Part shown: one piece after another, positions 5,663-51,883 of the stretch | Layout of the letters: every line of letters begins with the position of its first letter | Numbering within the stretch: the first letter of the stretch is position 1 | Virus record (IMG/VR): IMGVR_UViG_3300002026_000042 | Span: 1-51,883 of that record | Direction: 5' to 3' (one strand) | DNA length: 51,883 nucleotides | Source of the DNA: a virus | The notes under the pieces: model-generated | What the model saw: the letters and a program-made list of their open reading frames with translations, nothing else | What the model was told of the DNA's origin: nothing | Databases searched by the model: none | Program-made: the position numbers and the translations under genes

Positions 5663-5718
5663 AATCTTAACCCTCCTGACCCCCTATCACCATCAGGCAA
5701 CAAGTTTATACAAGAATA

Positions 5719-7008: not shown

Positions 7009-7278
7009 CTAGGTGTACACCATCGCCTTTAATGATTTCAGATTGTCAACGAACTTGCGAGCCTTGACGCTACCAGTACCCCCGAAGTACAGAGCCTTTG
7101 CCTTGTTCAGGTCGCTGTCTGCGACACGAAGAACGAACACGACGCGAGCAGAACTTCCCGTACCTGTCCTTTCAGATCCGTGCAACGGAAAATCTAGCGC
7201 AACAAGATACGCACAAAAGTAGATATCCGAGGTGCGATACAGCGGAACTACCATTTCGTTATTCGTGTTGACACTCAT
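7009..7278 (-). CDS. DUF5659-like small protein (89 aa)
   Basis: The pattern YRTSDIYFCAYLVALDFPL...VVFVL...KALYFGG...ARKFVDNLKSLKAMV resembles the DUF5659 family as I recall it. Not searched. Confidence 0.4.
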   Translation of the reverse strand: MSVNTNNEMVVPLYRTSDIYFCAYLVALDFPLHGSERTGTGSSARVVFVLRVADSDLNKAKALYFGGTGSVKARKFVDNLKSLKAMVYT

Positions 7279-7283
7279 TGTGA

Positions 7284-7565
7284 TTAAACCTCCCGAACAT
7301 CACCGCCTCCGTGATCATAGGCAACGGTACGAACTGGGGCTTTGCGCCCCTTCATCCGATAAGCAGCCTCTTCGTTCTTCGCCTTCTGCTGCTCCCCGAA
7401 CGATGACGGGCGACGCACGCCGCTGACAACAATGCCAGTCGCCATGTACACCCGCTTGCAGTCACCGCCACAGTTCTCGCACTTGACATCCGTAGGGGGC
7501 TTGCCGATAGGGGCAATCCGATCCTGATGCTTTTTACACTTTGAACACACGAAAGGGAATAACAT
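7284..7565 (-). CDS. FmdB-type zinc-ribbon protein (93 aa)
   Basis: FVCSKCKKH...17 aa...CENCGGDCKRVY: two CxxC pairs in the arrangement typical of FmdB-family zinc ribbons. Confidence 0.55.
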   Translation of the reverse strand: MLFPFVCSKCKKHQDRIAPIGKPPTDVKCENCGGDCKRVYMATGIVVSGVRRPSSFGEQQKAKNEEAAYRMKGRKAPVRTVAYDHGGGDVREV

Positions 7566-7568
7566 CTC

Positions 7569-8360
7569 CTACTCCCCCTTCCCCGACTCAAGCGCAGCGA
7601 GGCGAGCTTTCAGCGCAGCGATCTCTGCGTCCTTGTCAGCAGCGGGAGTTGCCTTGGGTTTAGGGCCGGGTTTAGCAGCACCCTCGGTGCGTTTGCTCCC
7701 CGGCTTAGGCCCGGGCTTCCGCTTCGAGCTCTCCGCCGATGCGACCCGCGCAGCCCCCTCCTTCGGCCCGAACTGTTGCCCCGCGTTGCGCGATACCGTC
7801 TTTTCACCAACCGCCATGCCAAGACTATCATCATGGACAATCGGCATCTTTGCCTTGTTCGTCTCCTTGAGCCGAGCCCGTTCAGCAAGCGATGCAATAT
7901 CATTCTTCTTGTTAAGCTCCGCGATACGCTCCTCCACAGACTCGTCCCCGCGAATGATCTCCAGCTTGTGCCCCTCCGCCTTCTTACCTACCCGCGCCCG
8001 ATCCACAGCCGCCTGCTTGTTCTTGCCTATCTGCGTATCCTTGCAATCCACAGGCTCCATCAGATCCTCGTCGCAGTGGATGACTTTCATCTTCTCCGTT
8101 GCCCGCACAATCTTCTTTGCAGCACTCGCAGCCTGAATATCCCCAGCGATCTTCTCTGCAAGCTCCTTGTCGTAAGGAACCGATATGGGATTGGACTCAT
8201 ACCGACGATTCGCCATCTTCATGTGATCGTACTTTATCGTCCCTTTGTATTCCGTCCCGTTGATTAGCACCATGCCATCATTCACCTCTATCACCGACCC
8301 CCGATTAACCCCGACCCCGTCTAACGCCGCCTGCCGAACCACCAGCCACTTCTCACTCAT
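7569..8360 (-). CDS. hypothetical protein (263 aa), Lys/Pro-rich basic C-terminus
   Basis: Long ORF. C-terminal KRKPGPKPGSKRTEGAAKPGPKPK low-complexity tail followed by a coiled-coil segment. Confidence 0.6.
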   Translation of the reverse strand: MSEKWLVVRQAALDGVGVNRGSVIEVNDGMVLINGTEYKGTIKYDHMKMANRRYESNPISVPYDKELAEKIAGDIQAASAAKKIVRATEKMKVIHCDEDLMEPVDCKDTQIGKNKQAAVDRARVGKKAEGHKLEIIRGDESVEERIAELNKKNDIASLAERARLKETNKAKMPIVHDDSLGMAVGEKTVSRNAGQQFGPKEGAARVASAESSKRKPGPKPGSKRTEGAAKPGPKPKATPAADKDAEIAALKARLAALESGKGE

Positions 8361-8462
8361 CCCGTCCTCCTTGTTTTCATATTACCCACTACATAGTGGA
8401 AAAGCCAAAACGAAACTGCTACGGCTGGACGCCCAGCCATAGCATCACCGACAAACCACCAA

Positions 8463-9576: not shown

Positions 9577-9944
9577 TGGCGGAGGTGGCGGGAGTTGAAC
9601 CCGCGTCCGTGAAAGCCAGTCTTGAAAGCGTCTACGTGCATAGTCACTGTTTCTCGACATGTAACCCGTCTATTCAGTTCTTAGCTGACAAGCAGGGAGT
9701 TCTTTCAACACCCAAAGCCAGCGTTCTTAGCCGCCATCAATCTCTGTAATCGACACTACTGACACCTACCGAGACAATCTCGGTGCCTTCGTGCTGGTTG
9801 CTTACGCAGCCAGAGCAAAAGCTCTGGCACCAGGGAATGCAATTGAGTTATCAATTGACTTGTAACCGGCTATTAACGAGGCCAACCGGTCAACCTCGGC
9901 ACGCAACTCCCAACCCTCGACCCACGTCGAAACCAGTCACCCCC
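9577..9944 (-). ncRNA. ssrA: tmRNA (SsrA), full length
   Basis: 5' GGGGGTGACTGGTTTCGACGTGGG... and 3' ...GGACGCGGGTTCAACTCCCGCCACCTCCGCCA. Acceptor stem has a G3-U wobble, the T-arm is GCGGG-TTCAACT-CCCGC, and the terminus is CCA. The internal tag reading frame ends GCA TTC CCT GGT GCC AGA GCT TTT GCT CTG GCT GCG TAA (...AFPGARAFALAA-stop). A possible resume codon GCC follows UUAAUA. Confidence 0.9.
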
Positions 9945-10228
9945 TTTATTTCTCTGAAAATCCCACAAAGCCTAGAAATCGTACTCTCCGTCAGCGGCAA
10001 CTCCGCAACCCCAAACCCACGCATAGCATTGTTTTCCCACCCGAGCTGAACCACCTCTGCCTGCTCCTTCGGAACCCCTACGGACATCAGCGCAGACGAG
10101 ATCGTGCTTCGCATCTCATGCACGTCGGCGTGACTTACCGCCTTTGATTTGACAAGCAACCGCGCCTTGTCACCGCTACGATACCACTTGGCACTAACAC
10201 CCGATTCCCGACGCTTGAATATACTCAT
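9945..10228 (-). pseudogene. degenerate C-terminal remnant of a P4-type tyrosine integrase
   Basis: HEMRSTISSALMSVGVPKEQAEVVQLGWENNAMRGF aligns with the integrase box II region (H-x-x-R...LGH...Y), with His replaced by Trp and Tyr by Phe. Only about 93 codons, with no N-terminal or box I region. The tracked ORF (9890..10228) runs on into the tmRNA 5' end. Confidence 0.35.
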
Positions 10229-10280
10229 AACGAAGAACCCTTGTGCTTATTGTGATCGCTGATGCAGCATCGGGGGTAAC

Positions 10281-10307
10281 ACTATACGAGCAGCATGACC
10301 TTGTCAA
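10281..10307 (-). promoter_or_regulatory. sigma70-like promoter candidate for the integrase-remnant/tmRNA unit
   Basis: Minus strand TTGACA (10307..10302), a 15-nt spacer, then TATAGT (10286..10281). The -35 overlaps the stop codon of the upstream gene. Confidence 0.4.
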
Positions 10308-10690
10308 CACGAAACAATCGCTTTTGGATCTAAAACTACAATCGGGTTTTTCATCCCGTCAAGCATTATCTTTACCTTGTCCCCAGCCATCAGGTTGAAC
10401 TTGTTCGCAGCCGCAAGCATATCAGCCATCGGGATGCCTAGCGCGTGGGCCGCAGAACAGAACTTGGTGACGGCATACACGATCACCTCTTGCGCCAGCC
10501 CCTCGGGAAGCTCCCGCCCCTCGCAGGTCACAACCTTGTCCCCGATGATCGAAACAATCGCATTCAACGGACGTGTATCCTCTGTCGGAACCTTGGCGTC
10601 GCTACTGTCAGGCCACACCCTGTCAAACAGCTTTCCAGCCTTCTTCGGCAAGGACTCGTAAACCTTCATCCGTTCGTTGTTATGATGCAA
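10304..10690 (-). CDS. hypothetical protein (128 aa)
   Basis: Minus-strand ORF in the array. No recognisable motif. Confidence 0.55.
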   Translation of the reverse strand: MHHNNERMKVYESLPKKAGKLFDRVWPDSSDAKVPTEDTRPLNAIVSIIGDKVVTCEGRELPEGLAQEVIVYAVTKFCSAAHALGIPMADMLAAANKFNLMAGDKVKIMLDGMKNPIVVLDPKAIVSC

Positions 10691-10714
10691 AATGCCAGTC
10701 TGCTGTAAAGTAAA

Positions 10715-11449
10715 TCATCTCGACACCTCTATCTTAATCATCCTAGACCTCATGCTCTCTGGCATCTCCGACAGCTTCTTGTTGAACTCCCGCTCAGCCA
10801 GATACGTTGCCCGCATATCCTGAAAGTCCGACTCGTTCCACCGCTCCTGCATCGCATCCCAGACAAAGGACAGGTTGTTGTTCTCAATCTTCCCGCTGCC
10901 CAACGACTCCACGAACCCTATAAACTCCTTGTCAAGCCACGGAGGCACCCAGCAGCCCGAACGGCACACATGGATGCCCACAACGTCGTTCCTGTCAACC
11001 CGCACCTCCTGCGACCCCGACAGGTCCAGCCGAGCGGCCCTAGGCATCCCAAACGCTGAATGATCTGGCCTGCACCACCTCGCCGTCCTCCTGCGACTCC
11101 CACGCAGCCACAGCTTGAGCCAGTTATGGCACTGCGGGTAGCAGGCCCCCGCCCCGACAGGCCAGCAGTCATGGTGCGCATCAAACATGACGATGTGATC
11201 CGCCTTTGTCTCCAACGCCACATGATACGCCGACAGGTGCGACTCGGACACATACACCTTCGGAAACCCAGCCACCCCGATACGATCCCAGAACCCGACC
11301 TGCCTCCCGTCGCATCGCATCTTGCTTTCCAGAAACCCTCGGGTCTTCCAGATCATGCTCAGGTGCAACCCGTTCTCCTGATGCCCCAGATCCCAATCTG
11401 GATCCTCGGGACAAAAGTAATCAAAGTCAACGCTAATTAAGGTCTTCAT
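10715..11449 (-). CDS. hypothetical protein (244 aa), His/Asp/Cys-rich, possible metal-dependent enzyme
   Basis: Motifs SVDFDYF and FDAHHDCW, plus several Cys and His residues. No confident family assignment. Confidence 0.55.
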   Translation of the reverse strand: MKTLISVDFDYFCPEDPDWDLGHQENGLHLSMIWKTRGFLESKMRCDGRQVGFWDRIGVAGFPKVYVSESHLSAYHVALETKADHIVMFDAHHDCWPVGAGACYPQCHNWLKLWLRGSRRRTARWCRPDHSAFGMPRAARLDLSGSQEVRVDRNDVVGIHVCRSGCWVPPWLDKEFIGFVESLGSGKIENNNLSFVWDAMQERWNESDFQDMRATYLAEREFNKKLSEMPESMRSRMIKIEVSR

Positions 11450-11812: not shown

Positions 11813-11861
11813 ATCAAACCTCCTTACAACCCCCTATCACCAGAATGTCAAAAGTTTCTAC

Positions 11862-12980
11862 TCACCACTCAAGCAATATCAGCGACCTGAAAAGCTGCTC
11901 TATCCCCTTTTCATCCGCATCCCGTGGCAGCTTCGATTCCGCCTTGACCGTTTCAAGCTCCGCCATCCGCCGTTCCACGTCCGCCATAAGCGTTTCATAC
12001 GGAACGTTGCCAGCACGGATGTTCATCAGGTAGTCAAGCTCCGCCCCTGCAAAGCGCACAATCGGCTCACCCGTGCGCAGGATCGCCTCCCCCGACATCA
12101 ACAGCCTGATGCAGTGTAAAGCGTTTTTAGCGTCGTAGTCCACCACGCCTCGCTCCTGATCGACCCACCTGTTCTGGTTCCGATTCTTTACCCAGTCCCA
12201 GTACCCCGTCCATTGTGACACTGCCTTCTCGTACGCGTCCTCCGCATAGATAAGCAGCCCTATGAAGTACTTCTCATCCTCCAGCGAAATACTCCCGCAG
12301 ACAAGATTCCCGTCCCGAAACACGCCCTTCGAGGTTTTCTCGTCATCCCTGTAAAGCCTGTAGACGTCTTTGCCGTGTTCCAGCCCAGCCACCTTGCAGG
12401 CATCAAGCCGATACACCTGCCTGTTATACTCGCAGCCACTAAGCAGTTCCTGATACGGTACGGGACGGCAAGGCTGCTTCTTGTTGTTCATGTGTGACGC
12501 TGGGATGATCCAGCAGAAGTCCTCCCGTTTCGGTTTATCCTCTGGCATCGGGTTATTCACAAACTTGTTCTGACCCCTCATCTTTTTAATTTGTGCAAAT
12601 GCGTACCCTGAAAATGTGTGGAAAGCCTTCTGGGAAACGAACAGGCCCCTGTGCTTCAGGACATGATCCCAAGCGGGCGTCGTCTTCTTGATGCAATCAT
12701 CGGGCATGAATATAAGTTCGATTATGTTCGGGCTGGCATCCTTCGCCAGCGCAAAGAACTTCTCCAACTCATAATACTTGACGTCCTCTGGACTTTCCTG
12801 CCCCACCTCCGTCGGCAACTGCTTTGTCGTTATCCGATCAGACAACGGACGCAAAAACACGCCCCTATAGTCAAAGTCAGAATGATAACTATCCGTATCT
12901 ATTGCCGTTCCATACGCCCTTGACCCAGTCAACAGCTTACACATGATCATCCCAGACTTTTCCAACTGTTCTATATTCAT
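11862..12980 (-). CDS. RlaP-like nucleotidyltransferase (Pol-beta superfamily, COG3541/pfam10127-type)
   Basis: N-terminal LLTGSRAYGTAIDTDSYHSDFDYRGVF (GS-x-AYG...SD-x-D-x-RGV) followed by YELEKFFALAKDASPNIIELIF and GYAFAQIKKM, as in the RNA-repair-associated nucleotidyltransferase family. Confidence 0.6.
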   Translation of the reverse strand: MNIEQLEKSGMIMCKLLTGSRAYGTAIDTDSYHSDFDYRGVFLRPLSDRITTKQLPTEVGQESPEDVKYYELEKFFALAKDASPNIIELIFMPDDCIKKTTPAWDHVLKHRGLFVSQKAFHTFSGYAFAQIKKMRGQNKFVNNPMPEDKPKREDFCWIIPASHMNNKKQPCRPVPYQELLSGCEYNRQVYRLDACKVAGLEHGKDVYRLYRDDEKTSKGVFRDGNLVCGSISLEDEKYFIGLLIYAEDAYEKAVSQWTGYWDWVKNRNQNRWVDQERGVVDYDAKNALHCIRLLMSGEAILRTGEPIVRFAGAELDYLMNIRAGNVPYETLMADVERRMAELETVKAESKLPRDADEKGIEQLFRSLILLEW

Positions 12981-13717
12981 ATCTTCCCCTCCTTCTCAAT
13001 CACATCCCAGCTATGGAAGTCCCGTAAGTCACCCGACCATACGCTGCCGAAGTCTCCGCCCGCCGCGCTGTCTGTCTCAAACGCCTTAATAAATCTGGCC
13101 CGCGTCTTGCCGCCAATCAGCGGATACCGAGGCGACCCCTCCTCTATCGGATACCCGAGCATTTCCCGCCACCCATTCCCATAGAGGCAAATGTACTTTA
13201 TGTCGCAAACCTCAATCTCCACAGCCGTAAAACAGTAATCACTACCCTGCTGCAAATCATAAACCACCCGCTCTTTTTCAAACGCCTCGCTGGGAACATC
13301 CAAGTGGCATCCCAGAATGTCGCCATGATACACTGGCGGCAAGGTTTCCCATTTGATTGCAACTGGCAGCGAAACCATCGCGGTCACACTGTTTAGCTTG
13401 TCACCGCAAGCCTGCGCTCCGAACGTCACCCCACCAGCCTCGGCCATGAAGCAGACCTTTGATTTGACCTCCCGAGCCACAGGTTCAAACCCCGCATCAG
13501 AAAATGCCCCACGCATCCTGTTGAAAAACGCTTCAGCCGTTGCCACATTGCCCTGCATGTCCCGCAGCCACGCTTGGTTCCCGCCTTCAAAGTCAAACCC
13601 CAACGTAGTCGCGACCGCCTTGATCGGCTCTAGGTCAAACCCGTCTGGATGCACCCAGACAAGTTTCTGATCTGAATAGCTTTCCCCATCACTCGGAATT
13701 GAAATCAATCGTCCCAT
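12977..13717 (-). CDS. hypothetical protein (246 aa)
   Basis: ATG at 13717 preceded by GGGAGG (13730..13725). The longer tracked start (13831) has no SD. Its stop overlaps the downstream start. Confidence 0.55.
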   Translation of the reverse strand: MGRLISIPSDGESYSDQKLVWVHPDGFDLEPIKAVATTLGFDFEGGNQAWLRDMQGNVATAEAFFNRMRGAFSDAGFEPVAREVKSKVCFMAEAGGVTFGAQACGDKLNSVTAMVSLPVAIKWETLPPVYHGDILGCHLDVPSEAFEKERVVYDLQQGSDYCFTAVEIEVCDIKYICLYGNGWREMLGYPIEEGSPRYPLIGGKTRARFIKAFETDSAAGGDFGSVWSGDLRDFHSWDVIEKEGKI

Positions 13718-13761
13718 ATCAACACCTCCCTTGAATATCAGCCAACTCCGCCTTGATCCGT

Positions 13762-14025
13762 TCAACCTCTTGCTGCATATACTGCTGCCGCATGGTTCTT
13801 TCCTCTGACTCTGGCTCCCCCGTCGACCCAAGCCTCCTCGGGAACAGCATCATGCCCGAACTTGAACAATTCAAGTTTCAAAGGCTTATACTTATCCTCC
13901 GTGTTTATGCGTGGCACCCGAACTAGAATCCGACCGTCCGTTGCGAAAGTCCAGTCCCCCGCACTCCACGGCCTGCTGATGCTTTCCCGCCCAGGTTCAT
14001 TAGAACATAACAATTGCAAATCCAT
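13762..14025 (-). CDS. hypothetical protein (87 aa)
   Basis: Minus-strand ORF between the radical SAM gene and the 246-aa ORF. Confidence 0.5.
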   Translation of the reverse strand: MDLQLLCSNEPGRESISRPWSAGDWTFATDGRILVRVPRINTEDKYKPLKLELFKFGHDAVPEEAWVDGGARVRGKNHAAAVYAARG

Positions 14026-14077
14026 ATCACACCCCCCTTATTTCATTTCCTCCCTATCACCAGCCCCGCCAGATTTT

Positions 14078-15421
14078 CTACTTCACCAGCCCCCGCTCCG
14101 ACAACCTCTTTATCCCCACCTCTGGCAAATACCCCCACACGTTGCGTGCTGGCAGGTCATCCCAAGTGTATTGCTTGAAAAGCCTGTCCTTGTCAAACAG
14201 CGTTTCCAACGCCGCCAGCCGCCTCGTCGAGTTCCCCTCGCTCCAGAACTTCTTTGCCAAAGCCAGCTTCTCCACATTGGCAGAATCACTTTCCACGCCA
14301 CGCAAGACTATCGCCTCAAGGAAAATAGCAGACAGGCTTTCCACAATCCCACCGACCGTGACACGCAAATGTTCCCCAAGAGCAACATGCTGACGAACAG
14401 CCCCACCCATTTTCTCAACATCATCACGATGGTTTTTATACGACATCTTCCATATACCAGACGGGGTTGCAGGCATTGCCCTGAAGGGGGTGAAATGGAA
14501 TTGGACATCAGTCCTCTGGCACCCATTCCCAACAGCATCTACAGCCGCCTTCTTGCAAATCACCGAGAGTTCTCGAATATCGTCATCTGTTTCAGTTGGC
14601 AACCCGATAAGATTATATACCCGAACTGGATGCCTGATTGCGCTTCGTGTCAGCCCCATCAAAAAATCATACAACATCTCATTGCTGATCGGCTTGTTAA
14701 CCATTACCCGCAATCTTTCACTTGCCCCATCCAGTCCTACATTTCTAATATACCTTGGATAATCATCACTATTTTTCAAGTCAAAGTCAAAAAGAGTGAA
14801 CTCCTGATCTAACGAAAATGGATTATTCCCAGTCTTGCCCGACGACTGCCGCTGCCCTAGGTATTTCCTTGTCCAAGTGTAATGACAGAATGAACACTTG
14901 CGCTGGCACCCTATCGCCCCCTCCGTACACTCATTCCCCTTTGCATCCTTGAACGGCTCTGGATACGATTGGCCGACCTGCGCATAGATGTACTTGCGAT
15001 CCATGCTGAATGAATCACTGTAGCAAATCGACTCATGTTCAAACCGACCCCCAGAAAGCTCCGCCTCGATCAACGGGACAATCAGGTTCTCCGCCCTCCC
15101 ATAGACTGCCACATCAAAGAACGGAAGCAACGCCCGCACGTTGCAAACCCCGTGCCCGCCGACAATCACCCTAGGCTGCCTACCCTTCCACCGCAGCCGC
15201 TCTGCCAGAAAAGACCACCAATCGCACTGGCTCGTGATCGGAACCAGCAAAACCTTGTAGTCTGATACCGTCTCCATCCCCGCATACCCGACCTCAAACC
15301 CAGCCTTCTCAATCACATGCTTTACCAACTCCATCCCGAACCACCACCGCGTACAGTAGCTGTCAACAGCATAAGACGACTTGGCATACCCACCCTGAAT
15401 ATACACCGCAATGTCTTTCAC
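14078..15421 (-). CDS. radical SAM enzyme with N-terminal B12-binding-like (class B-type) domain
   Basis: CQRKCSFCHY is the CxxxCxxC [4Fe-4S]/SAM motif. It is preceded by a Rossmann-like segment (KVLLVPITSQCDWW...RVIVGGHGV). The likely GTG start at 15421 overlaps the ParB-like stop (GTGA). The start is uncertain; the track gives 15469. Confidence 0.75.
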   Translation of the reverse strand: MKDIAVYIQGGYAKSSYAVDSYCTRWWFGMELVKHVIEKAGFEVGYAGMETVSDYKVLLVPITSQCDWWSFLAERLRWKGRQPRVIVGGHGVCNVRALLPFFDVAVYGRAENLIVPLIEAELSGGRFEHESICYSDSFSMDRKYIYAQVGQSYPEPFKDAKGNECTEGAIGCQRKCSFCHYTWTRKYLGQRQSSGKTGNNPFSLDQEFTLFDFDLKNSDDYPRYIRNVGLDGASERLRVMVNKPISNEMLYDFLMGLTRSAIRHPVRVYNLIGLPTETDDDIRELSVICKKAAVDAVGNGCQRTDVQFHFTPFRAMPATPSGIWKMSYKNHRDDVEKMGGAVRQHVALGEHLRVTVGGIVESLSAIFLEAIVLRGVESDSANVEKLALAKKFWSEGNSTRRLAALETLFDKDRLFKQYTWDDLPARNVWGYLPEVGIKRLSERGLVK

Positions 15422-15948
15422 CTCTTCCCTTTCACCCCGAAAACAAAGCCACACTTGCCGCATGTACACTTGACCCGCTGTTCATCCTTCACAATGTCAG
15501 CAAGAAGATCGGAAATGTCCCCCACATCCCCGAGGCCGTCACGGATCATACTGCCGAAGTCCACCTTCAGCAACGCCTTGAACTCCTCGTCCATAACATC
15601 AAGACGCGCCGTGATTACATCCCAGTTCCATTCCGACCCCAACGCCACATCAGACGCACGGTTGTCCATCAGCCCGTACGCCATCGCCTCCTCATCCCCT
15701 ATGTCCAGACGAATCGCGGCAATCCGCTTCCACCCCAGCTTCCCCGCCGCCTCCAACAGCCCATGCCCAGCCCTGCAAATACCGTCACGATCAAGCACGA
15801 CTGGCTTTGTCTGACCGAACCGAGTCAAACTGCCGACCAGCATATCAACATTCGTATCAGAATGGATCTTGGAGTTTAACGGGTCTAGCGTTATCCCGTC
15901 GATAGGAACAATGAATCCATGCAAGCTCTCAACAATAACCTCTTTCAT
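15418..15948 (-). CDS. ParB/Srx-fold (ParB-like nuclease domain) protein with C-terminal zinc ribbon, copy 2
   Basis: ATG at 15948 after GGAGG. IVPIDGITLDPLNSKIHS...FGQTKPVVLDRDGICRAGHGLLEAAGKLGWKRIAAI is a ParB N-terminal domain pattern. C-terminal CTCGKCGF. Confidence 0.65.
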   Translation of the reverse strand: MKEVIVESLHGFIVPIDGITLDPLNSKIHSDTNVDMLVGSLTRFGQTKPVVLDRDGICRAGHGLLEAAGKLGWKRIAAIRLDIGDEEAMAYGLMDNRASDVALGSEWNWDVITARLDVMDEEFKALLKVDFGSMIRDGLGDVGDISDLLADIVKDEQRVKCTCGKCGFVFGVKGKR

Positions 15949-16504
15949 TCCTCCCCTCCATATCCTCGTCACCCGTACCCGTAGGCCACGGATTGTCATG
16001 CCCGCAGCGGGGACACCGCGCCAGCTTTTCCTTCTTGCCAGCCGCCTTCTTCTCTTTTTCCCCACTGGATGCCCCCATCCCCAACGCCTTTGCAAGCGAC
16101 GACTTCTCTGTATCCCCGATGCAAAGCAGGTCTAAGTCAAACGACCCCTTAATCCTCCCGACAATCTCCCGAACATTGTCCTCGTTCCACTCACTGCCTA
16201 TGTCTGCATCAGACGAACGATTGTCAATGATCTCGTATTCCTGAAACTGTTCCTCCGTCCAGTTCGGAAACACAGCAGCAATCTTGTCAGCCCCAAGCCG
16301 TTTCATCGCAGCGAACACCAGATTGCCAACCCGAACCACATTGTTCTTGTCAACAATCACGGGCCTCACCTGCCCGAACCTCTCTATGCTCGCCTTCAGC
16401 ACATTCAGGTTCTTTGCCGAATGAATCTTGACAACCGCTGGATTGTCTTGCAGCGTCGCCATATCCACGATCAAATCTTTCAACCCGTCCTGTATCTTTG
16501 CCAT
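15929..16504 (-). CDS. ParB/Srx-fold (ParB-like nuclease domain) protein with C-terminal zinc ribbon, copy 1
   Basis: KIHSAKNLNVLKASIERFGQVRPVIVDKNNVVRVGNLVFAAMKRLGADKIAAV is a ParB N-terminal domain pattern. C-terminal CPRCGH. Paralogous to the next gene. Confidence 0.65.
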   Translation of the reverse strand: MAKIQDGLKDLIVDMATLQDNPAVVKIHSAKNLNVLKASIERFGQVRPVIVDKNNVVRVGNLVFAAMKRLGADKIAAVFPNWTEEQFQEYEIIDNRSSDADIGSEWNEDNVREIVGRIKGSFDLDLLCIGDTEKSSLAKALGMGASSGEKEKKAAGKKEKLARCPRCGHDNPWPTGTGDEDMEGRNERGYC

Positions 16505-16514
16505 ACCCACACCC

Positions 16515-16817
16515 TTACCCCTCTACATTTTCAAGTTCATCCTGACAGTCATCGGGAAACTGAATCATGTTGTTTGCCACGAACCGCCTGACAGCATTGT
16601 CGGCATAGCACTCAAGCAGGCTTGGAACCTCCCTCGCCACATGCTCATACCAATAGCACTCATCCTTCACCGATTCCCCCTTGCCCCCAGACGCAGCCAT
16701 CGCAATCAGCATCCGCTCCGCCCACCGCAACCCATCCTCCGCATCCTCAAGCACCTCCTGCGCATTATGCTTGTGCAACCTAGGCATATACACCGACACC
16801 ACAGATCCATCACCCAT
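16515..16817 (-). CDS. hypothetical protein (100 aa)
   Basis: ATG at 16817 lies 6 nt after AAGGAGG. First gene downstream of repeat copy B. A TATAAT hexamer lies about 35 nt upstream. Confidence 0.6.
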   Translation of the reverse strand: MGDGSVVSVYMPRLHKHNAQEVLEDAEDGLRWAERMLIAMAASGGKGESVKDECYWYEHVAREVPSLLECYADNAVRRFVANNMIQFPDDCQDELENVEG

Positions 16818-16911
16818 AGCCACCCTCCTTGGTTCCTACCACCCATTATACGCCAAAGCCCCCGCCAAGAACTTACATTCCAAACGGAGGCTTTGCAACA
16901 ACCATTACAGG

Positions 16912-17103
16912 CAACCGTTCAAGTTAAGTTATGCAAACCTATACTTGTTTTGTCCTATGAGAAACGGTAAGTTTCTCATCTTGAACACCACAAAATTCAT
17001 AGCATCCAAGTTTTTGCAAAGACTATGAAAACACTTCTTAATCAACACGGTTGATTTCAAACAAAATGTTCTCATAACACCATCAACCTATTTCGCAACC
17101 CCT
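16912..17103. repeat. 192-bp intergenic direct repeat, copy B
   Basis: Matches 51793..51805 + 1..179 at 189 of 192 positions. Same palindromes at 16957..16979 and 17040..17056. Bounded by the stop of 17102..17893 and the leader of 16515..16817. Confidence 0.9.
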
Positions 17104-17893
17104 ACAGCATCCCCTTCTCGAAGCACCCCCCGATGTTCAAGTTGAACTTGGTATGCGGCTTGTCAACAAGGTCTATATCAGTGTAGTAGTCATCCGCGTC
17201 GGGCGTCTCCTGCCACCCCGCCCCACCACACTCCTGCCCCTTGTACTCCCCAGCCGTGAACACCACACGGTTCTTGCCAGCAGCCCCGTGAATCACACTG
17301 TCCTGATTCATCATCGTGCCAATATCGTTCAGGTGACTCTCCAGACTCTTCATCGTCGCCTCATCCTTGTGATGAACCATGACTGACTTTTCCGTCTTTT
17401 CCGTCAAGTCGGTGTCATCATGCAGGATCATAAAGCTCGGTTCCTTGCCCCCGTAATGCCCCACCGTCTCCGTGTACGGGATGTTGCGCTTCTCCAACTC
17501 CCCGCGCAACTGCAAATGCCGCTCGTGGAAGAACGGATCATCAGGCTCCATCTGCTTCTCCTTTGGATCCCTAGGATTACGACCTGCGGATAGAATGGAG
17601 AAATGACCCTTTGACAACACATTCTCCAGATCAACGCGTTTCAACTTACGGTGATACTTGTACCCTGACGCTTTGCCAGTCGCCTGCCCAGATGGCGGCT
17701 TTAATCCGTCGTCACCCATCCCGACGTCCTCGTTCGGCTTCTCCTCACTGTACTCGTACTCACCTTTTGAAACCTCCCGACGCCACGTATCCCTGTTCTC
17801 ATTCGGCGGCTCCCACTTCCCCCCGCCGCAAAGAACCCGCCGCGCAATACGTTCAGCCATCGCCACACGCTTATAAACATTTCCAATATCCAT
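17102..17893 (-). CDS. hypothetical protein (263 aa)
   Basis: ATG at 17893 preceded by GGAGGG. No confident motif. Confidence 0.6.
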   Translation of the reverse strand: MDIGNVYKRVAMAERIARRVLCGGGKWEPPNENRDTWRREVSKGEYEYSEEKPNEDVGMGDDGLKPPSGQATGKASGYKYHRKLKRVDLENVLSKGHFSILSAGRNPRDPKEKQMEPDDPFFHERHLQLRGELEKRNIPYTETVGHYGGKEPSFMILHDDTDLTEKTEKSVMVHHKDEATMKSLESHLNDIGTMMNQDSVIHGAAGKNRVVFTAGEYKGQECGGAGWQETPDADDYYTDIDLVDKPHTKFNLNIGGCFEKGML

Positions 17894-17959: not shown

Positions 17960-18238
17960 TCAATGATTGTTTCCACCGTTCACCGCCACGGGAGTCGCCT
18001 TGTGAACCACACGCCCATTGAACTTGACCCTGAATCCCCATTTTAGGTTTCCCGTGTCTTTCCCATCCACCTCAAGTTCCCTCAGTACCCTGCCAACTGG
18101 AACGATCCACTCTGGCGTCATATCATCAAAACACTTCTCAAGCCCGCTGTAATTAGACCCACGATTATTCATACTCCCCCATAACCTGCATTCGCCCGAA
18201 ATCAAGCACTCTTGCGACAAACAAAAATCGGCTCCCAC
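17960..18238 (-). CDS. hypothetical small protein (70-92 aa, start uncertain)
   Basis: The ORF overlaps the methyltransferase stop if started at 18238. An internal ATG at 18172 would avoid the overlap. Confidence 0.45.
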   Translation of the reverse strand: MGADFCLSQECLISGECRLWGSMNNRGSNYSGLEKCFDDMTPEWIVPVGRVLRELEVDGKDTGNLKWGFRVKFNGRVVHKATPVAVNGGNNH

Positions 18239-20151
18239 TTCTCGCCCCTCCCAAACAAAGAACTAGCCACAAGCCGATGCTCCTTGTAAATACCGTGCCC
18301 CGCCGTAAGATACATCCTAACGTCATCAGCGATATTGTGATCTACCACGTTGGCAATGTTAAGTGCAAAACACCCCCCAACAGACAAGTGCCGCATCGCC
18401 TTCTCTATCAGCGGAAACAGAAACAACTCCTTCCACGCCCCGTAATCCTTATAGCGAAACGCGCTTTGTCTGTCATCGCCCCCATACCACTCCGCATCGA
18501 AATAAGGGGGAGACGTGAATATGAAATCAAACAGCCCACCAACCTCGTAGTCCTCGAATGCCGTGTTGACTATTTTAACCTCTTTCCCATTCCCAACCTT
18601 TGCCGCAAGCCTGTTAAGCCCTGCAACTGTCTCTTTTTCAACCTCCACCCCAACATACTCACTTGCCGCAGAGCAACAAAACCCAAACAATCGTCCGCCC
18701 CACCCCGCACAGGGATCTAAAACGCGTCCCCCAGAAACACAATACCGATCAATTAAAGCCTTCGCAACAACTGGCCTGAAATTGTGAACTCCACCAAATG
18801 TTGCAAGCTCCGCCCGAACCGCAGAATCCGTCACCGACTTCCTATGCTTAATGCAGTCTGTTATCGCATGACGCAACAGCGAATCATCATCGAACACCGC
18901 TATCGGACTCAACTTGCCCTTGCGTTTCGCCGACCAGAACCCTTTGAAAAACGAAAGACACTCTGCACACCCCGCCGTATTGCCAGCAGGAATGTCCGTG
19001 TCAAACTCAAGCCTAGAACCAACAACAGACTGCACCGCCTTTGACACCCCTTCCGCCGTGCTATACGGAAATGAAAACCCAGCACGACGCAAGTGCGCAA
19101 ACACCGTATCGACCCACATGTCCACGTCGCAATCTACAGACAATACATCCCGAGACGCATCAAGCATTACACGCTGATGATTGCACGGGGTACCCCCGAG
19201 ACTAGGCGAAACCTTATACATCATACTTGGGTGCATATGGGGTTTTATCATTTCAAAGAACAGACCCTTGTTTTCAATCACAATGATAGATATGTCGTCC
19301 CGTTCGGCAACTTTAACGTCTAATCCTCGACCATCCATAAACCGCTTGATCCTATCAATATCCTCCCGACAGAATCCTGACGAAATCGTAGGCACCCCAT
19401 CCTTGCACCTGTCAGACAAATGCCCGTCATCCATGTACCAGACAGCAAGAGCCATAGGAGTTAGCATAATCTCAAAACCCACTGGCAACCGCTTCCCGCC
19501 GTCCCCGTAAAACATCTCCTTGAATGGTTGGAACACCCCATGAGAACAAGTATGAAACACATGCCCATAAGCAATCCGACCATCCTCCAGCAGCTTGTCC
19601 TCTCGCCTAATGCGCCCCGAGTACGGGAAAAACACCGCCTGCTTCCATTTCAAATAATCTAGCTGCTCTAAACAGTGCGACTCCTTATACCTTGACGTAC
19701 CCACGCCGCTTATCGCTAAATGTCCATCTCCCAATAATGACCCAAACAAAACGGCCTTCTGTTCTTCAGTCAATGACGATGGGTATGTTGCCTGATTTCG
19801 ATCCGACTTGCCAACCACAGGAATCCCGAACTCACCCCTAATCGTCTTGATCAACATCCTGCTACAACCAAACATCTTAGCCAGTTTGCTTTCTCCCGTT
19901 TGCCAATACATCTCTTCAAACTCACCACGGGTCAGACTGCGAATGTCACGCAGCCCAGAACGACAGGCCCGCCTCGATATCCGATCCCTTGCCGATATGG
20001 TTCCAATACCATATTTTCGACGATAATACGATACCGCGACATCACTTATTCCGTGTATGTCCCCAATCTCCCGATCAGACAATAATTGTTCAACATACAA
20101 CGACTCAATAACATCCTTTGTCAGATCATGCTCTTTATGCGTTTTCTTCAT
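18202..20151 (-). CDS. fusion ORF: two HTH repeats + double-motif LAGLIDADG homing endonuclease + SAM-dependent (SPPY) DNA methyltransferase
   Basis: ATG at 20151 lies 7 nt after AAGGAG. The upstream 63 tracked codons are intergenic and contain a promoter and terminator. HTH-like LSDREIGDIHGISDVAVSYYRRKYGI and ESKLAKMFGCSRMLIKTIRGEFGI. LAGLIDADG motifs LFGSLLGDGHL and LAVWYMDDGHL. Methyltransferase motif I RVLDPCAGWGGRLFG and motif IV FDFIFTSPPYF. Confidence 0.75.
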   Translation of the reverse strand: MKKTHKEHDLTKDVIESLYVEQLLSDREIGDIHGISDVAVSYYRRKYGIGTISARDRISRRACRSGLRDIRSLTRGEFEEMYWQTGESKLAKMFGCSRMLIKTIRGEFGIPVVGKSDRNQATYPSSLTEEQKAVLFGSLLGDGHLAISGVGTSRYKESHCLEQLDYLKWKQAVFFPYSGRIRREDKLLEDGRIAYGHVFHTCSHGVFQPFKEMFYGDGGKRLPVGFEIMLTPMALAVWYMDDGHLSDRCKDGVPTISSGFCREDIDRIKRFMDGRGLDVKVAERDDISIIVIENKGLFFEMIKPHMHPSMMYKVSPSLGGTPCNHQRVMLDASRDVLSVDCDVDMWVDTVFAHLRRAGFSFPYSTAEGVSKAVQSVVGSRLEFDTDIPAGNTAGCAECLSFFKGFWSAKRKGKLSPIAVFDDDSLLRHAITDCIKHRKSVTDSAVRAELATFGGVHNFRPVVAKALIDRYCVSGGRVLDPCAGWGGRLFGFCCSAASEYVGVEVEKETVAGLNRLAAKVGNGKEVKIVNTAFEDYEVGGLFDFIFTSPPYFDAEWYGGDDRQSAFRYKDYGAWKELFLFPLIEKAMRHLSVGGCFALNIANVVDHNIADDVRMYLTAGHGIYKEHRLVASSLFGRGEKWEPIFVCRKSA

Positions 20152-20181
20152 AAAATACTCCTTGTTAAACGTATAACTTGC

Positions 20182-20210
20182 ATTTAACCGAAAAACAATC
20201 GGCTTGTCAA
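20182..20210 (-). promoter_or_regulatory. sigma70-type promoter
   Basis: Minus strand TTGACA (20210..20205), a 17-nt spacer, then TTAAAT (20187..20182). Sits about 30 nt upstream of the ATG at 20151 and directly after the capsid terminator. Confidence 0.55.
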
Positions 20211-20291
20211 CTTGTATGTTTCCGAAAAACAAACAAGCAGTAAACCTAAACCAAAGAACACAAGAATAGTATTTCAGACTTTTGAAGAAAG

Positions 20292-20334
20292 CAAACAAAA
20301 ACAAAAAACCCTTGGGAGGTTTATTTCCCAAGGG
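20292..20334 (-). terminator. strong rho-independent terminator after the major capsid gene
   Basis: Minus strand CCCTTGGGA-aataaacc-TCCCAAGGG (9-bp perfect stem) followed by TTTTTTGTTTTTGTTTG. Confidence 0.85.
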
Positions 20335-20365
20335 TCTCAAACGCCTACATTACAGGCATTTACGC

Positions 20366-21229
20366 TTACGGACGCGTTATCTCTATTACTTGAAGTGCGA
20401 AGGGATTATAAGCGCCGATGCCGATTTGCTCGAAGATCGAGAAACCGATCAGACGGTTTTTCGGATCATCAGCAGACAGCACGGTCAGCTCCGTACGCAC
20501 AGGAATGCGACCGAAGAACTCGGGCTCGCCGCAAACGTACACGGTGCCTTCGGGCACGATACGCGACACGATCAGCTTGGCACCCCAGATGGTTGCCATC
20601 AGACCAGTCTTCAGCAGCACTGCCTGGGTCTCGATGTCGAGGGTATCCCGATCCCACTTGCGCAGGTCGGCATAGTCCTTGGCATTCAGGAACACAGAGG
20701 CGACACGCACGTCGGTACGCTCGATGTTGGCAAAAGCATCTGCCAGAGCGTTAGCCGTGAGGTTGCCCATGACGGGAATCACCGGGTTCGGGTTGGTCGG
20801 GTCAGCGGCCAGAGCGTCCATGACGGCGAAGGTCTTGCGATCCTCTTCCGCCTGAATCTCGGCTTTGCCCAGATCCACAGCACGTTCGATCAGATCGAAC
20901 CGACGCTGCTTGATCTCGGTGAGCTGGATCTCGGGGTTCGAGGCGATCTCGAACAGCGGGAACAGCACACGTTTCGGCTTGGCAACCGCGACGATGTTCT
21001 CCCCCTCTTCACCAACGACATACGCCGTGATGTTCGGGTCCTTATCGTAGATCGGCAGGGCTCCATCGGGCAACGCCTCGACAAAGAACGCCTTACGGCC
21101 TACGCTGGAATAGTCACGCCGACGGCGCAACGGCTGAATCATGCTTGCAGCCAAACGCTGACGCCCTGCGGCGGTGCGGATGTGCTGGGAAATGATCTGC
21201 TGACGGGTCTCATTAGTCATCTTGCTCAT
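20366..21229 (-). CDS. major capsid protein, HK97 fold (encapsulin-like, no delta domain)
   Basis: 287 aa. Pattern ...FPLFEIASNPEIQLTEIKQRRFDLIERAVDLGKAEIQAEEDRKTFAVMDAL...FLNAKDYADLRKWDRD...TGLMATIWGAKLIVSRIVPEGTVYVCGEPEFFGRIPVR... is typical of HK97-type coat and encapsulin shell proteins. Sits after scaffold-like genes and before the strongest terminator. Confidence 0.8.
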   Translation of the reverse strand: MSKMTNETRQQIISQHIRTAAGRQRLAASMIQPLRRRRDYSSVGRKAFFVEALPDGALPIYDKDPNITAYVVGEEGENIVAVAKPKRVLFPLFEIASNPEIQLTEIKQRRFDLIERAVDLGKAEIQAEEDRKTFAVMDALAADPTNPNPVIPVMGNLTANALADAFANIERTDVRVASVFLNAKDYADLRKWDRDTLDIETQAVLLKTGLMATIWGAKLIVSRIVPEGTVYVCGEPEFFGRIPVRTELTVLSADDPKNRLIGFSIFEQIGIGAYNPFALQVIEITRP

Positions 21230-33415: not shown

Positions 33416-34903
33416 TCACGCCTCCCATCGTTTCAAAAGTTCCCTCTCCGCCAGATCCTTGTCCAGCGGGATCCGTTTGACCGCAGCATCATCCATGATG
33501 TCCTGAACGATCCCCATAGCCCGCCCGACGTCCTTCCCAGGTTTGACCCCGAGAATACGCATGACGTCACGCCCGTCAAGAATAGGTTTCCCCCCGACTG
33601 GCGCGTCCTTGACCGCATCTTCAATCCGTTCCCGCAGATCAGGAATCTCGTTGTGCGACGGGATTGTCCCGAGTGAATCCGCCTCGGCCAGATCCAGAAC
33701 AGCATCCACCAGTTCCTCTCCCACCTCCCTAACAAACTTACGTATGGATTTTTCCGACACCCCTTCGTTCATCCGCCCGAGACTGTGTGGGCGCATGTGG
33801 TTTTCCACCAGTTTGCGAACCTTGCTGACCGCCGCGTTATCAAACTTCATCCGTCGCATCATTGCCTCAGCCATCTCCCCGCCCGCAACCTCGTGTCCGA
33901 TGAACTTGACGAACTCCCCGAACCGTTCCTGTGTTGCAGGTTTGCCGATGTCGTGAAGCAACGCCGCCATCTGCGACTCGACCCCCGGCTTCGCACCCTT
34001 CAGCACCATCAAGGTGTGTCTGAATACGTCCCCCTCTTGGTGCCATCCGCCTTTGTTCGTCTGCTCGACACCCTTGAGAGCTTCAACCTCTGGGAGAATA
34101 TGCTTCAGAAGACCGACCACGCTCATAGCCCGCACGGCCTGCGCCAGCTTCCCGATCTTCATCACCTTGACCAGCTCCTCCCTGACCCGCTCCGCCGACA
34201 CGATGGCGATCCTACCAGCGTTCGCCTTGACTATCTTCAGGACCGACAACGGAACCTTCCACCCGTATTTCGCTTGGAAACGAATAAGACGCATCATCCT
34301 TAGAGGATCGTCGCGAAGAATCTTGTTGAAGTCCACCCCCGGATGCCCCCTGAGAATCCCGTTCTGGATGTCCGAGACACTGGTTCCCGTGAGATCGACA
34401 AGCTCCCCGCTGGACAAGTCCTTCATCAGCATATTGACGGTGAAATCTCGACGCTCCACATCGTCCGCTATGCTTCCGGGAGTCGTGACCCGCTGTCTGC
34501 TATCCTCGTCTGGAAACGACTCTTTCTGAGAATCCGAAACCTCAAGCTCCCCGCCCTTTGTCTCGTAGACCTCCCCATCGAACTCTATGTCCTCCTTGAA
34601 CGTGATCTGCCAGATGGGATACCCCGCCCCAAGCTGCCGTGGAGTCGAGACCTCGTTACCGAACTGGTTCTTGATCCAGTGCGTGAACTCCTTTGCTCCT
34701 CCCTCCCCCTCCACGACTAGATCAAGGTCTTTCGCATCCAGTCCAAGTAGTTGATCCCGTACATATCCGCCGACCGCCATCACGCGACCCTTCCAAATGG
34801 AGCTAGGAAGAATTGCCTTCATCAGACGCTCTATCTCGGCCTCCGCAGACGACGCCTCCATATTCCTTGCAATCCTCAACAACTCACTCGCGATCTTGTT
34901 CAT
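33416..34903 (-). CDS. cca: class II tRNA nucleotidyltransferase (CCA-adding enzyme) with HD domain, preceded by shared leader
   Basis: AVGGYVRDQLLGLDAKDLDLVVEG (GGxVRD...DxD), RRDFTVN, DDPLRMMRLIRF, and HD motif ...H...LLHDIGKP. N-terminus MNKIASELLRIARNMEA. Confidence 0.85.
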   Translation of the reverse strand: MNKIASELLRIARNMEASSAEAEIERLMKAILPSSIWKGRVMAVGGYVRDQLLGLDAKDLDLVVEGEGGAKEFTHWIKNQFGNEVSTPRQLGAGYPIWQITFKEDIEFDGEVYETKGGELEVSDSQKESFPDEDSRQRVTTPGSIADDVERRDFTVNMLMKDLSSGELVDLTGTSVSDIQNGILRGHPGVDFNKILRDDPLRMMRLIRFQAKYGWKVPLSVLKIVKANAGRIAIVSAERVREELVKVMKIGKLAQAVRAMSVVGLLKHILPEVEALKGVEQTNKGGWHQEGDVFRHTLMVLKGAKPGVESQMAALLHDIGKPATQERFGEFVKFIGHEVAGGEMAEAMMRRMKFDNAAVSKVRKLVENHMRPHSLGRMNEGVSEKSIRKFVREVGEELVDAVLDLAEADSLGTIPSHNEIPDLRERIEDAVKDAPVGGKPILDGRDVMRILGVKPGKDVGRAMGIVQDIMDDAAVKRIPLDKDLAERELLKRWEA

Positions 34904-47000: not shown

Positions 47001-47144
47001 CTTGACGCAGAACTTCTGGACAGGCTTGAGCTTGACCCGTAGCCCCCACGGAGCCTCGATGAATGTTATCGGGTCAACGTCTGCCGCCCCGCTTGACAGG
47101 AAGTCGCGGGCAATATCAGCAAACAACGAGTTTGAATCAGCCAT
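44007..47144 (-). CDS. terL: terminase large subunit interrupted by an intein in the Walker A P-loop
   Basis: Walker A split as SIGRRSGK/intein/STLSAC. Walker B NAIVVIMDEMAFF. RNase-H-like nuclease motifs YYAGIDLGFKNDGTALCVV and GAHDDISDALARAVW. Confidence 0.9.
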   Translation of the reverse strand: MADSNSLFADIARDFLSSGAADVDPITFIEAPWGLRVKLKPVQKFCVKCAYGLPLDRGSKTIKVPDETNERILYEFNEADFLKWLYAEGRCNVDETDGMLFRELVWSIGRRSGKCRDKDDLIATTAGSITFGELCDRLGNGEKIGIGTYDPVTLRRSISDQIKAQYNGRVECCELVTKRGIRETSSWNHPYLVWRDDMDKPDFVEMKNLMVGDKVAIAACTELFGLAGVGVARAALLGHFQGDGGTTCSVGYTTGSEVMLGDLKKLIALEFPGYVVRKKGLKSFRLGYEVQKESGRFKQYGSRKNEVKEWLRSVGCFGKKAVIKEVPDCILRGSRVEVSAFLSRLFGCDGWATVKGKVAAGHGGSPSAHIGYCSASRKMIDGVRHLLLKYGIHSIVNKKKNTCGGKSFESWSLCIARADSLEKFRNDIGILSKEKEVDLVVESARRREVSKSEFGSVPKGIWRYVKKVMSERGLSGADVVGEHGVGARGRLRWNYAPSRRKVQLYGEKICDDFLMNMGTSDVMWDEVSSLNCVGKRLTVDVEVSGTHIIGGDVVSHNSTLSACMSNYEMYKLIKKGDPSASYGFPAFTKCYILNVAPADDQSDTVFGMAKTLAIQCPYLQGRGVHSTQTYFDFQTDADIALGPKAIPSLIMLSGGCSSNTLRGKNAIVVIMDEMAFFIDNTGRFSGKEVYRALTPSVASFQNDGKVICISSPYAKFGIFYERFIQSFDETDVTLSFKMYSAMMNPDLPKEILVAAKRRDRSSFMCEYGAEFSDSVKAWVEDENEMKKCITLPSAPRRGQTGIEYYAGIDLGFKNDGTALCVVHKDMQTRKVYLDYSKVWYSGASDVWDSDRSIYAGCGKYSDKDLLSMADMIGEIKETHKWFPFKKGLFDQHNGYALAEMLKTCGLGMLEMKEFNDLLNSSIYQLLKRMYAEELLVLYDDPVLIPEILSLEAEMKNKHRVLVRAPHRAGAHDDISDALARAVWACYNDSKDGGMNVVSGSATGGRSSLGMQTSLGFMVDRMKRHGDHPRGAYQRKGSVGVPLIRF
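45474..46802 (-). mobile_element. terminase intein (443 aa) with LAGLIDADG homing endonuclease
   Basis: aa 115..557. Starts CRDKDDLIATTAGSITFGEL, has LAGLIDADG motifs LLGHFQGDGG and LSRLFGCDGW, and ends LTVDVEVSGTHIIGGDVVSHN followed by Ser. Confidence 0.85.
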
Positions 47145-51792: not shown

Positions 51793-51883
51793 CAACCGTT
51801 CAAGTTAAGTTATACAAACCTATACTTGTTTTGTCCTATGAGAAACGGTAAGTTTCTCATCTTGAACACCACAAAATTCATAG
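51793..51883. repeat. 5' part of repeat copy A plus 78-bp window-end overlap (51806..51883 = 1..78)
   Basis: 51806..51883 is identical to 1..78, which indicates a circular or terminally redundant assembly. The repeat homology with copy B starts at 51793 (CAACCGTTCAAGTTAAGTTA). Confidence 0.9.

Follow-up and report, generated by a model that had tools for sequence, protein, structure and literature searches.

What the genes around a radical S-adenosylmethionine (SAM) enzyme do for the phage that carries them, and which of them belong together, is the question raised by a 51,883-nt stretch of viral DNA, IMG/VR record IMGVR_UViG_3300002026_000042, positions 1 to 51,883 (the window, at its full length). 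The enzyme (rSAM) lies in a block of seven closely spaced genes that also includes two ParB-like genes and a nucleotidyltransferase (NTase) gene, and an original prediction made from the sequence treated all seven as one candidate module for modification or repair of nucleic acids. Open reading frame (ORF) calls and profile matches confirm seven minus-strand ORFs with the identities given there. Comparison with related loci revealed that the conserved unit comprises two of these genes, the rSAM gene and the ParB-like gene that abuts it. We tentatively favour, at a little short of even confidence, the reading that this pair is a split ParB-guided DNA-modifying enzyme that would alter phage DNA by radical chemistry ahead of packaging, with C-methylation as the likeliest reaction.

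The rSAM (447 aa; 14078-15421, minus strand) has a GTG start, on which the stop codon of the ParB-like gene ParB2 (176 aa; 15418-15948, minus strand) lies in a GTGA overlap. When the window proteins were compared by BLASTP and phmmer with all ORFs of 85 loci carrying rSAM homologues, only the rSAM and the ParB-like protein recurred; the 102-aa, 87-aa and 246-aa proteins and the NTase had no match even at E = 1. Where 650 nt or more precede the rSAM (64 loci), a partner profile finds in every case an ORF, either ParB-like or CPKCG-tailed, that ends at the rSAM start and usually overlaps it; BLASTP alone recovers this pairing in 54 of the 64. Two far more distant rSAM relatives also retain a ParB-like partner, and the distances of partner and rSAM co-diverge (Mantel r 0.73, p ~0.001). 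Because only the rSAM and its abutting ParB-like gene recur, the conserved unit consists of two genes. The pair is an obligate unit, inherited together, in which the rSAM is the catalytic subunit and ParB2 is its cognate partner in the window. The neighbourhood co-occurrence proposed as a check on the original prediction thus holds for the ParB-rSAM core in every testable locus and not for the other five of the seven genes; with the 102-aa, 87-aa, 246-aa and RlaP-family NTase genes present in 0 of 85 loci, the claim of a single seven-gene functional module is not sustained. ParB1 (193 aa; 15929-16510, minus strand), a tandem paralogue that overlaps ParB2 by 20 nt, is an extra copy of the partner; other loci show none. 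In one related locus (L051), two paralogous rSAM copies are found less than 3 kb apart (7061-8410 and 9995-11356), and a ParB-like partner lies directly upstream of the second only.

The pair occupies a recurrent position in phage genomes. Among the 68 loci with at least 4 kb of downstream sequence, 60 have the start of a large terminase gene (TerL) less than 3 kb downstream of the pair, mostly within 1 kb. A small terminase gene (TerS) is often found between the pair and TerL, and portal, protease and capsid genes follow. These terminases form seven sequence clusters and include PF03354/PF20441, GpA, T7-like and Terminase_3 types. Since rSAMs with as much as ~85% identity adjoin different terminase clusters, the cassette moves between phage lineages and yet keeps its position.

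The same position is known from another type of phage gene. Over its N-terminal 100 aa, a typical partner (L026) shares 50-70% identity with the N-termini of phage genes annotated as DNA methyltransferases or DNA modification methylases, and likewise with stand-alone phage genes annotated as "ParB-like nuclease domain"; no cultured-phage record covers 80% of this partner. In Streptococcus phage Javan117 (QBX14016) and Psychrobacter phage pOW20-A (YP_007673350), a ParB-methyltransferase fusion of this kind (phrog_498, PADLOC MTase_II) immediately precedes the terminase and portal genes. The pair and the ParB-methyltransferase fusions share a late, pre-packaging slot. A different set of neighbours was observed on the 86.8-kb contig of a distant relative (L088, 7558-13282), where the genes after the pair encode a polysaccharide pyruvyl transferase, NeuB, a second B12-binding radical SAM protein and a CMP-sugar synthetase-type enzyme, a gene set that resembles a nonulosonic-acid pathway.

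The two ParB-like proteins of the window are paralogous as predicted (37% identity over 108 aa, E 9e-25), and both match phrog_620 (5e-25 for ParB1 and 1e-22 for ParB2); ParB1 has an additional weak match to Pfam ParB_N. Both also match the DNA methyltransferase family phrog_498 (1e-18 and 1e-15) and, over the N-terminal domain and linker, PADLOC MTase_II (8.5e-9 and 1.1e-9). These methyltransferase-profile matches are confined to profile positions 25-150; the proteins have no methyltransferase domain and end after the knuckle. Across the family, partners are 155-200 aa long, PF02195 is matched by 25 of 29, and the family profile matches structures of Spo0J, Noc and ParB at ~4e-13 and sulfiredoxin at 1e-6. 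The ParB N-terminal domain carries NPR, GHxRxxA and DN motifs, which correspond in position to the Spo0J boxes. It is followed by an acidic linker, in which GFxxxE and DLDD elements occur, and by a single C-terminal CPKCGFEFEV knuckle, immediately after which comes the stop codon; in the knuckle the C, K and C are invariant and the P, G, F and F are conserved at 90% or more. In the window, ParB1 has a CPRCG knuckle, and ParB2 shows the ParB domain, the acidic linker and a terminal KCTCGKCGFVF. A zinc ribbon had been predicted at the end of each protein, whereas one CxxC knuckle is found in each: there is no second conserved cysteine pair in the partner that would make up a two-knuckle ribbon. 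Neither a helix-turn-helix (HTH) nor a ParB C-terminal dimerisation domain was found in the partner. In the related loci sampled, the partner has a median pI of 4.7 and its tail a pI of ~4.1-4.3.

The predicted identity of the radical SAM enzyme, with its length of 447 aa and its CxxxCxxC motif, stands. The motif cysteines C172, C176 and C179 are invariant in an alignment of 34 homologues, and no other cysteine is invariant or even 90% conserved; the cysteine of a 'SDCDWW' segment, for example, is substituted in several members. Because CxxxCxxC holds the only conserved cysteines, the enzyme has no auxiliary cluster such as methylthiotransferases or SPASM proteins carry. PF04055 (Radical_SAM) matches 31 of the 34 members (best 1.9e-9), with the window protein at 26.6 bits, below the cut-off of 29.5. 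Besides this weak Radical_SAM match, the window protein weakly matches Radical_SAM_N2, B12-binding, TIGR03960 and TIGR04013 models (the last at 1.9e-5). Weak matches to PF02310 (B12-binding) occur in 21 of the 34 members (best 6e-6; window protein 0.0098), and PF19864 is likewise matched in 21 of 34. The enzyme is basic, with a median pI of 8.2.

An AlphaFold2 model of the rSAM (pLDDT 89.9, pTM 0.90) consists of an N-terminal Rossmann domain of B12-binding-like type, a radical SAM barrel and a helical C-terminal domain; residues 363-446 are entirely helical and form no TRAM-like beta domain. All significant Foldseek matches of this model in the PDB (E ≤ 0.001) are radical SAM enzymes, with the B12-dependent enzymes MgmA (9ccb; E 3.8e-10) and OxsB (5ul2; E 2.2e-6) in first and second place, followed by MtaB, MiaB and RimO at E 1e-5 to 2e-4. 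MgmA is also the top match of the rSAM sequence profile, which in addition finds RimO weakly. The sole close match among viral structures is an uncharacterised "Fe-S oxidoreductase" of a gut siphovirus. In agreement with the B12-domain type that had been proposed, sequence and model suggest that the rSAM is a class-B-like radical SAM enzyme, without an auxiliary cluster, that may bind cobalamin.

This family is known mostly from metagenomes. About 70 rSAM homologues at 36-44% identity are all unnamed or hypothetical and all metagenomic, and a search with the rSAM profile against 1.84 billion cluster representatives returned 258 representatives at E ≤ 1e-30, of which the full-length matches are nearly all ~440 aa long. 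Among the 150 representatives listed, all of 519 aa or less, there is no ParB-rSAM fusion. In GTDB genomes at least one locus carries the rSAM, in a metagenome-assembled genome of Planctomycetaceae. None of the 34 family members has a PHROG, no PADLOC model matches the rSAM, and neither a tblastn search with the rSAM nor a megablast search with the seven-gene block found a match in the 50,697 phage records of INPHARED, which represent cultured phages. The literature searched likewise yielded no description of a ParB-like/rSAM pairing, in line with the original statement that the combination was not recognised as a described system.

The remaining genes of the block are best described as lineage-specific neighbours that are not demonstrated members of the pair. 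The block begins with a 102-aa ORF (16515-16823, minus strand; GTG start), which is present as predicted, at 102 aa instead of 100 aa; the module had been taken to end at 16504, a limit that excludes the start of ParB1 at 16510 and the entire 102-aa gene. A gap of 4 nt separates this ORF from ParB1. Downstream of the rSAM follow an 87-aa ORF (13762-14025, minus strand) after a gap of 52 nt, a 246-aa ORF (12977-13717, minus strand) after a further gap of 44 nt and, through an ATGA overlap that implies translational coupling, the 372-aa NTase of Pol-beta fold (11862-12980, minus strand). A GGAGG-type ribosome-binding site precedes each of the seven ORFs. Since the minus strand carries all 62 genes called in the window, in close packing, co-direction alone is no evidence for an operon. 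In scans of Pfam, PHROG and PADLOC-type libraries, no family reached its curated threshold for the 102-, 87- and 246-aa proteins. The 246-aa protein found no homologue except itself among 5.8 billion sequences and no tblastn match in the 50,697 phage records.

A 31-nt motif, GTAGAAA-N13-TGGTGATAGGG on the minus strand, is present in three copies in the window (14052-14082, 11832-11862 and 5682-5712). The first overlaps the rSAM stop codon and runs into the spacer ahead of the 87-aa gene, and the second overlaps the NTase stop codon ahead of a 118-aa gene; each copy is followed, after ~15-25 nt, by a Shine-Dalgarno site and a start codon. This motif is a candidate phage promoter that would split the seven-gene block. 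In a search with its 11-nt core, three copies were also reached in 8 of 100 shuffled sequences, so that the signal is weak.

The RlaP identity proposed for the NTase is borne out by PF10127 (E 6.9e-18; 65.7 bits against a curated cut-off of 23), and the protein also matches phrog_388 at 5.4e-45. An RlaP NTase occurs in 236 phage records, in a collection in which the rSAM is matched nowhere, and in Cronobacter phage CR8 a tRNA-synthetase-like gene and one for a CCA-adding enzyme are close to it. The window itself encodes a CCA-adding enzyme (tRNA nucleotidyltransferase; 33416-34903, minus strand; phrog_2244 at 2e-55) and, ~2 kb beyond the NTase, a tmRNA (9577-9944, minus strand; Rfam RF00023, 130 bits over the full-length model) with the ARAGORN tag peptide AGYKSIDNSIAFPGARAFALAA. 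A tmRNA, a CCA-adding enzyme and an RlaP NTase make up an RNA-maintenance set typical of very large phages. Given the CCA-adding enzyme and tmRNA of the window, the neighbours in CR8 and the NTase records that lack the rSAM, a role of the NTase in RNA maintenance is more likely than a partnership with the rSAM.

The window is a fragment of a Phage-G-like huge phage, as indicated by capsid identity and by synteny with a 485-kb phage. Its major capsid protein (20366-21229, minus strand) shares 68% identity with the capsid protein of LR745208, an uncultured phage of 485 kb, 49% with that of Tunturiibacter phage Tunturi_5 (309 kb) and 38% with that of Bacillus phage G (498 kb), and the TerL, portal, protease, capsid and methyltransferase/LAGLIDADG genes are syntenic with LR745208. 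This synteny ends exactly where the repeat and the ParB block start, which places the block in a variable region. The repeat is a dispersed element of ~192 nt with copies at 16912-17103 (copy B), 1-179 and 51793-51883 (98-99% identity). The element contains the hairpin GAGAAACGGTAAGTTTCTC, and copy B lies immediately upstream, in minus-strand sense, of the 102-aa/ParB/rSAM genes, as had been described. The first 78 nt of the window are also its last 78 nt. As the phage is related to phages of 300-500 kb, the ~192-nt element is in all likelihood a regulatory repeat, dispersed in the genome, at whose copies the assembly broke off. A circular genome of 51.8 kb, considered from the 78-nt terminal overlap, was rejected because the capsid, terminase and portal genes are syntenic with those of a 485-kb phage. 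A Bacteroidota-type promoter in the repeat was also dropped, as all genes have strong GGAGG Shine-Dalgarno sites.

Several other window genes have unusual features. TerL (44007-47144, minus strand; 1045 aa) and the portal protein (38708-42835, minus strand; 1375 aa) contain residues, ~116-554 and ~448-917, respectively, without a counterpart in the LR745208 homologues, and the oversized proteins suggest intein or homing-endonuclease insertions. Adjoining the capsid gene, as also in LR745208, a 712-aa protein (18202-20340, minus strand) combines a LAGLIDADG domain (PF03161, 2.9e-20) with a C-terminal DNA-methyltransferase-like region. A 263-aa protein just upstream of copy B (17102-17893, minus strand) matches the PF23780 S-adenosylmethionine lyase family at E 2.4e-4 and 21.5 bits, below the cut-off of 28, and this match was not used; if true, it would place a SAM degrader beside SAM-using enzymes, which would be curious.

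How, then, might the conserved pair act? The cassette could be a split counterpart of the phage ParB-DNA-methyltransferase fusions. The ParB domain would bind phage DNA, and the tail, formed by the acidic linker and the knuckle, would dock on the basic rSAM, which fits the contrast between the pI of the tail (~4.1-4.3) and that of the enzyme (8.2). The tail may also add a metal or electron-transfer site; CPxCG is a rubredoxin-type knuckle. The [4Fe-4S]/SAM centre of the rSAM, probably together with cobalamin in the Rossmann domain, would modify a base or sugar carbon of phage DNA late in infection, before or during packaging, and could so protect the DNA from host restriction. We infer the substrate (DNA), the chemistry (methylation) and the role of the tail. 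A part in nucleic-acid modification, as originally suggested, is plausible in that the ParB domain of the partner is the one fused to phage DNA methyltransferases in the same genomic slot. It is a more doubtful step to regard the pair as the first phage radical-SAM DNA modification system, in which a ParB-guided cobalamin-type rSAM would leave a carbon-linked mark (such as purine or sugar C-methylation) and replace the ParB-methyltransferase fusions in hundreds of uncultured lineages known mostly from metagenomes. Carbon-linked marks of that sort are, to our knowledge, beyond ordinary SAM methyltransferases.

Comparison with known systems places the pair close to two groups, the ParB-methyltransferase fusions and the class B radical SAM methylases, and it differs from both of these closest relatives in defining features. 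It shares with the fusions a homologous ParB N-terminal domain (50-70% over ~100 aa), a profile match that extends across the linker of the partner and the slot upstream of TerS, TerL and portal. The fusions carry an N6/N4 methyltransferase domain in cis, whereas the pair has a separate rSAM encoded by the next gene, and, unlike the fusions, its partner ends in an acidic linker and a CPKCG knuckle. MgmA/QCMT and OxsB have the same arrangement of N-terminal Rossmann domain and radical SAM barrel as the rSAM model, at 10-12% identity and TM ~0.3-0.5, but MgmA has no ParB-type partner. MiaB, MtaB and RimO have in common with the rSAM a three-domain layout and core motifs (GxxSGS-like and 'GYPxET'); they possess an N-terminal three-cysteine auxiliary cluster and a TRAM domain, neither of which is found in the rSAM family. 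The ParB, Spo0J and Noc CTPase clamps resemble the partner in the fold and motif positions of the N-terminal domain, but they have GERRxRA, an HTH and a dimerisation domain, whereas the partner has GHxRxxA and none of those domains. In DndB/DpdB, a ParB-superfamily protein accompanies a DNA-modifying enzyme, which is a conceptual parallel (PMC10853773). The Dnd and Dpd systems have a different enzymatic partner and lie in cellular defence islands, whereas the pair lies in the phage late region, and none of the eight proteins scanned had a PADLOC match to components of Dnd (DndA/C/D/E), Dpd (DpdA) or Ssp (SspA-D).

Several observations weigh against a ParB-guided DNA-modifying enzyme, and some of them favour other explanations. 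The best-conserved segment of the partner is the C-terminal knuckle and not the ParB motifs, and both window copies lack the GxxR-motif arginine that is conserved elsewhere (GNLVFAA in ParB1, GHGLLEA in ParB2). In one phage lineage, partners of 70-72 aa have no ParB domain at all (L061, 2296-2508; L073, 9780-9998) and consist of an acidic segment and HCPKCGLVFEV; they lie between TerL and rSAM, with the portal gene directly after the rSAM. The B12-binding Pfam matches are below curated cut-offs, and cobalamin binding is not demonstrable from sequence; the structural matches are all remote (TM 0.3-0.5, 10-15% identity); the closest of them, MgmA, acts on protein and not on DNA; and in the window the pair is not beside a terminase but ~4 kb past the capsid gene and ~28 kb from TerL. 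The tail-only partners fit a substrate or cofactor role of the tail better than DNA guidance. They are secure in L061 and L073 only: a search with a tail-only profile was unspecific, as two of three matches on longer contigs did not adjoin an rSAM and one was a split ParB, and L001 and L002 have a truncated partner, located at the edge of an apparently decayed integrated element. These tails, the strong conservation of this segment and the protein-modifying B12-rSAM as nearest structure all speak for the main rival, in which the partner is the substrate: the rSAM would modify the CPKCGFEFEV segment, for example by C-methylation or a cross-link, and the ParB domain would be a leader or a functional domain tuned by the modification. 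In clusters for ribosomally synthesized and post-translationally modified peptides (RiPPs), the gene for the peptide substrate typically lies directly upstream of, and coupled to, the rSAM gene; such precursor/maturase logic, or the action of MgmA on methyl-coenzyme M reductase, would be the parallel. Thioether- and cross-link-forming RiPP maturases carry SPASM/twitch auxiliary-cluster cysteines, however, and the rSAM has none; CPxCG is a generic metal-binding knuckle that would be conserved even without modification; and the ParB-domain homology and slot shared with DNA methyltransferase fusions would be left unexplained. The methyl-coenzyme M reductase residue that MgmA methylates is a glutamine (PMC11796369, PMC9401015). 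On balance we regard modification of the partner as rather unlikely.

A packaging role is suggested by the position itself, kept upstream of TerS/TerL across seven terminase clusters and lying between TerL and portal in L061 and L073, and by the stand-alone 'ParB-like nuclease domain' genes found at genome-end positions in many cultured phages. HNH proteins play such a part in HK97-like cos phages, and the ParB-like protein could analogously be a nuclease or DNA-recognition factor for the terminase, with the rSAM acting on DNA ends or on a packaging protein. Yet HNH genes accompany the pair in ~12 loci (cluster c9) and are thus not replaced by it, the window pair is distant from TerL, orphan methyltransferases are common in the same slot, so that the position needs no packaging role, and we know of no packaging system that requires radical chemistry; we consider this explanation improbable. 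No more credit than that can be given to modification of RNA, in which tRNA or rRNA of host or phage would be the substrate of the rSAM, in the manner of Cfr/RlmN or MiaB/MtaB, for host takeover or for tuning of translation, together in this phage with the RlaP NTase, CCA-adding enzyme and tmRNA. The presence of these three in the window, the significant structural matches to MiaB, MtaB and RimO and the weak RimO sequence matches are in its favour; but the rSAM family lacks the three N-terminal methylthiotransferase cysteines and has a helical C-terminus in place of TRAM, the RNA-related genes do not accompany the pair in the 85 loci, and the relatives of the partner are DNA enzymes. A multi-step hypermodification or repair pathway of all seven genes, specific to the window phage, seems very improbable. 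In its favour, the genes share one direction and little space is left between them (four junctions overlap or nearly abut), and they begin right after a dispersed repeat that is a possible promoter region; against this, five of the seven are missing from every other rSAM locus, one of them, the 246-aa gene, being an ORFan, many phage records without an rSAM match contain the NTase, a promoter-like motif is present at the rSAM/87-aa and NTase/118-aa junctions, co-direction is shared by all window genes, and the block lies in a region where synteny with the nearest huge phage ends.

For annotation, these results mean that a seven-gene "module" becomes a two-gene unit with unrelated neighbours. 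The cassette has only two genes and is conserved in no fewer than 258 sequence clusters, beside terminases of several families, which makes heterologous expression straightforward. Much new nucleic-acid chemistry comes from phage DNA modifications, which are also a main source of tools, among them restriction-resistant DNA and new epigenetic marks. If ParB-guided radical modification of phage DNA is true, a carbon-linked DNA mark would be a new modification class, and standard methylation-aware analyses could miss such a mark. It would also give a first function to a branch of the large, uncharacterised COG1032/B12-like rSAM group, and it would bear on the role of the ParB domain in the very common phage ParB-methyltransferase fusions.

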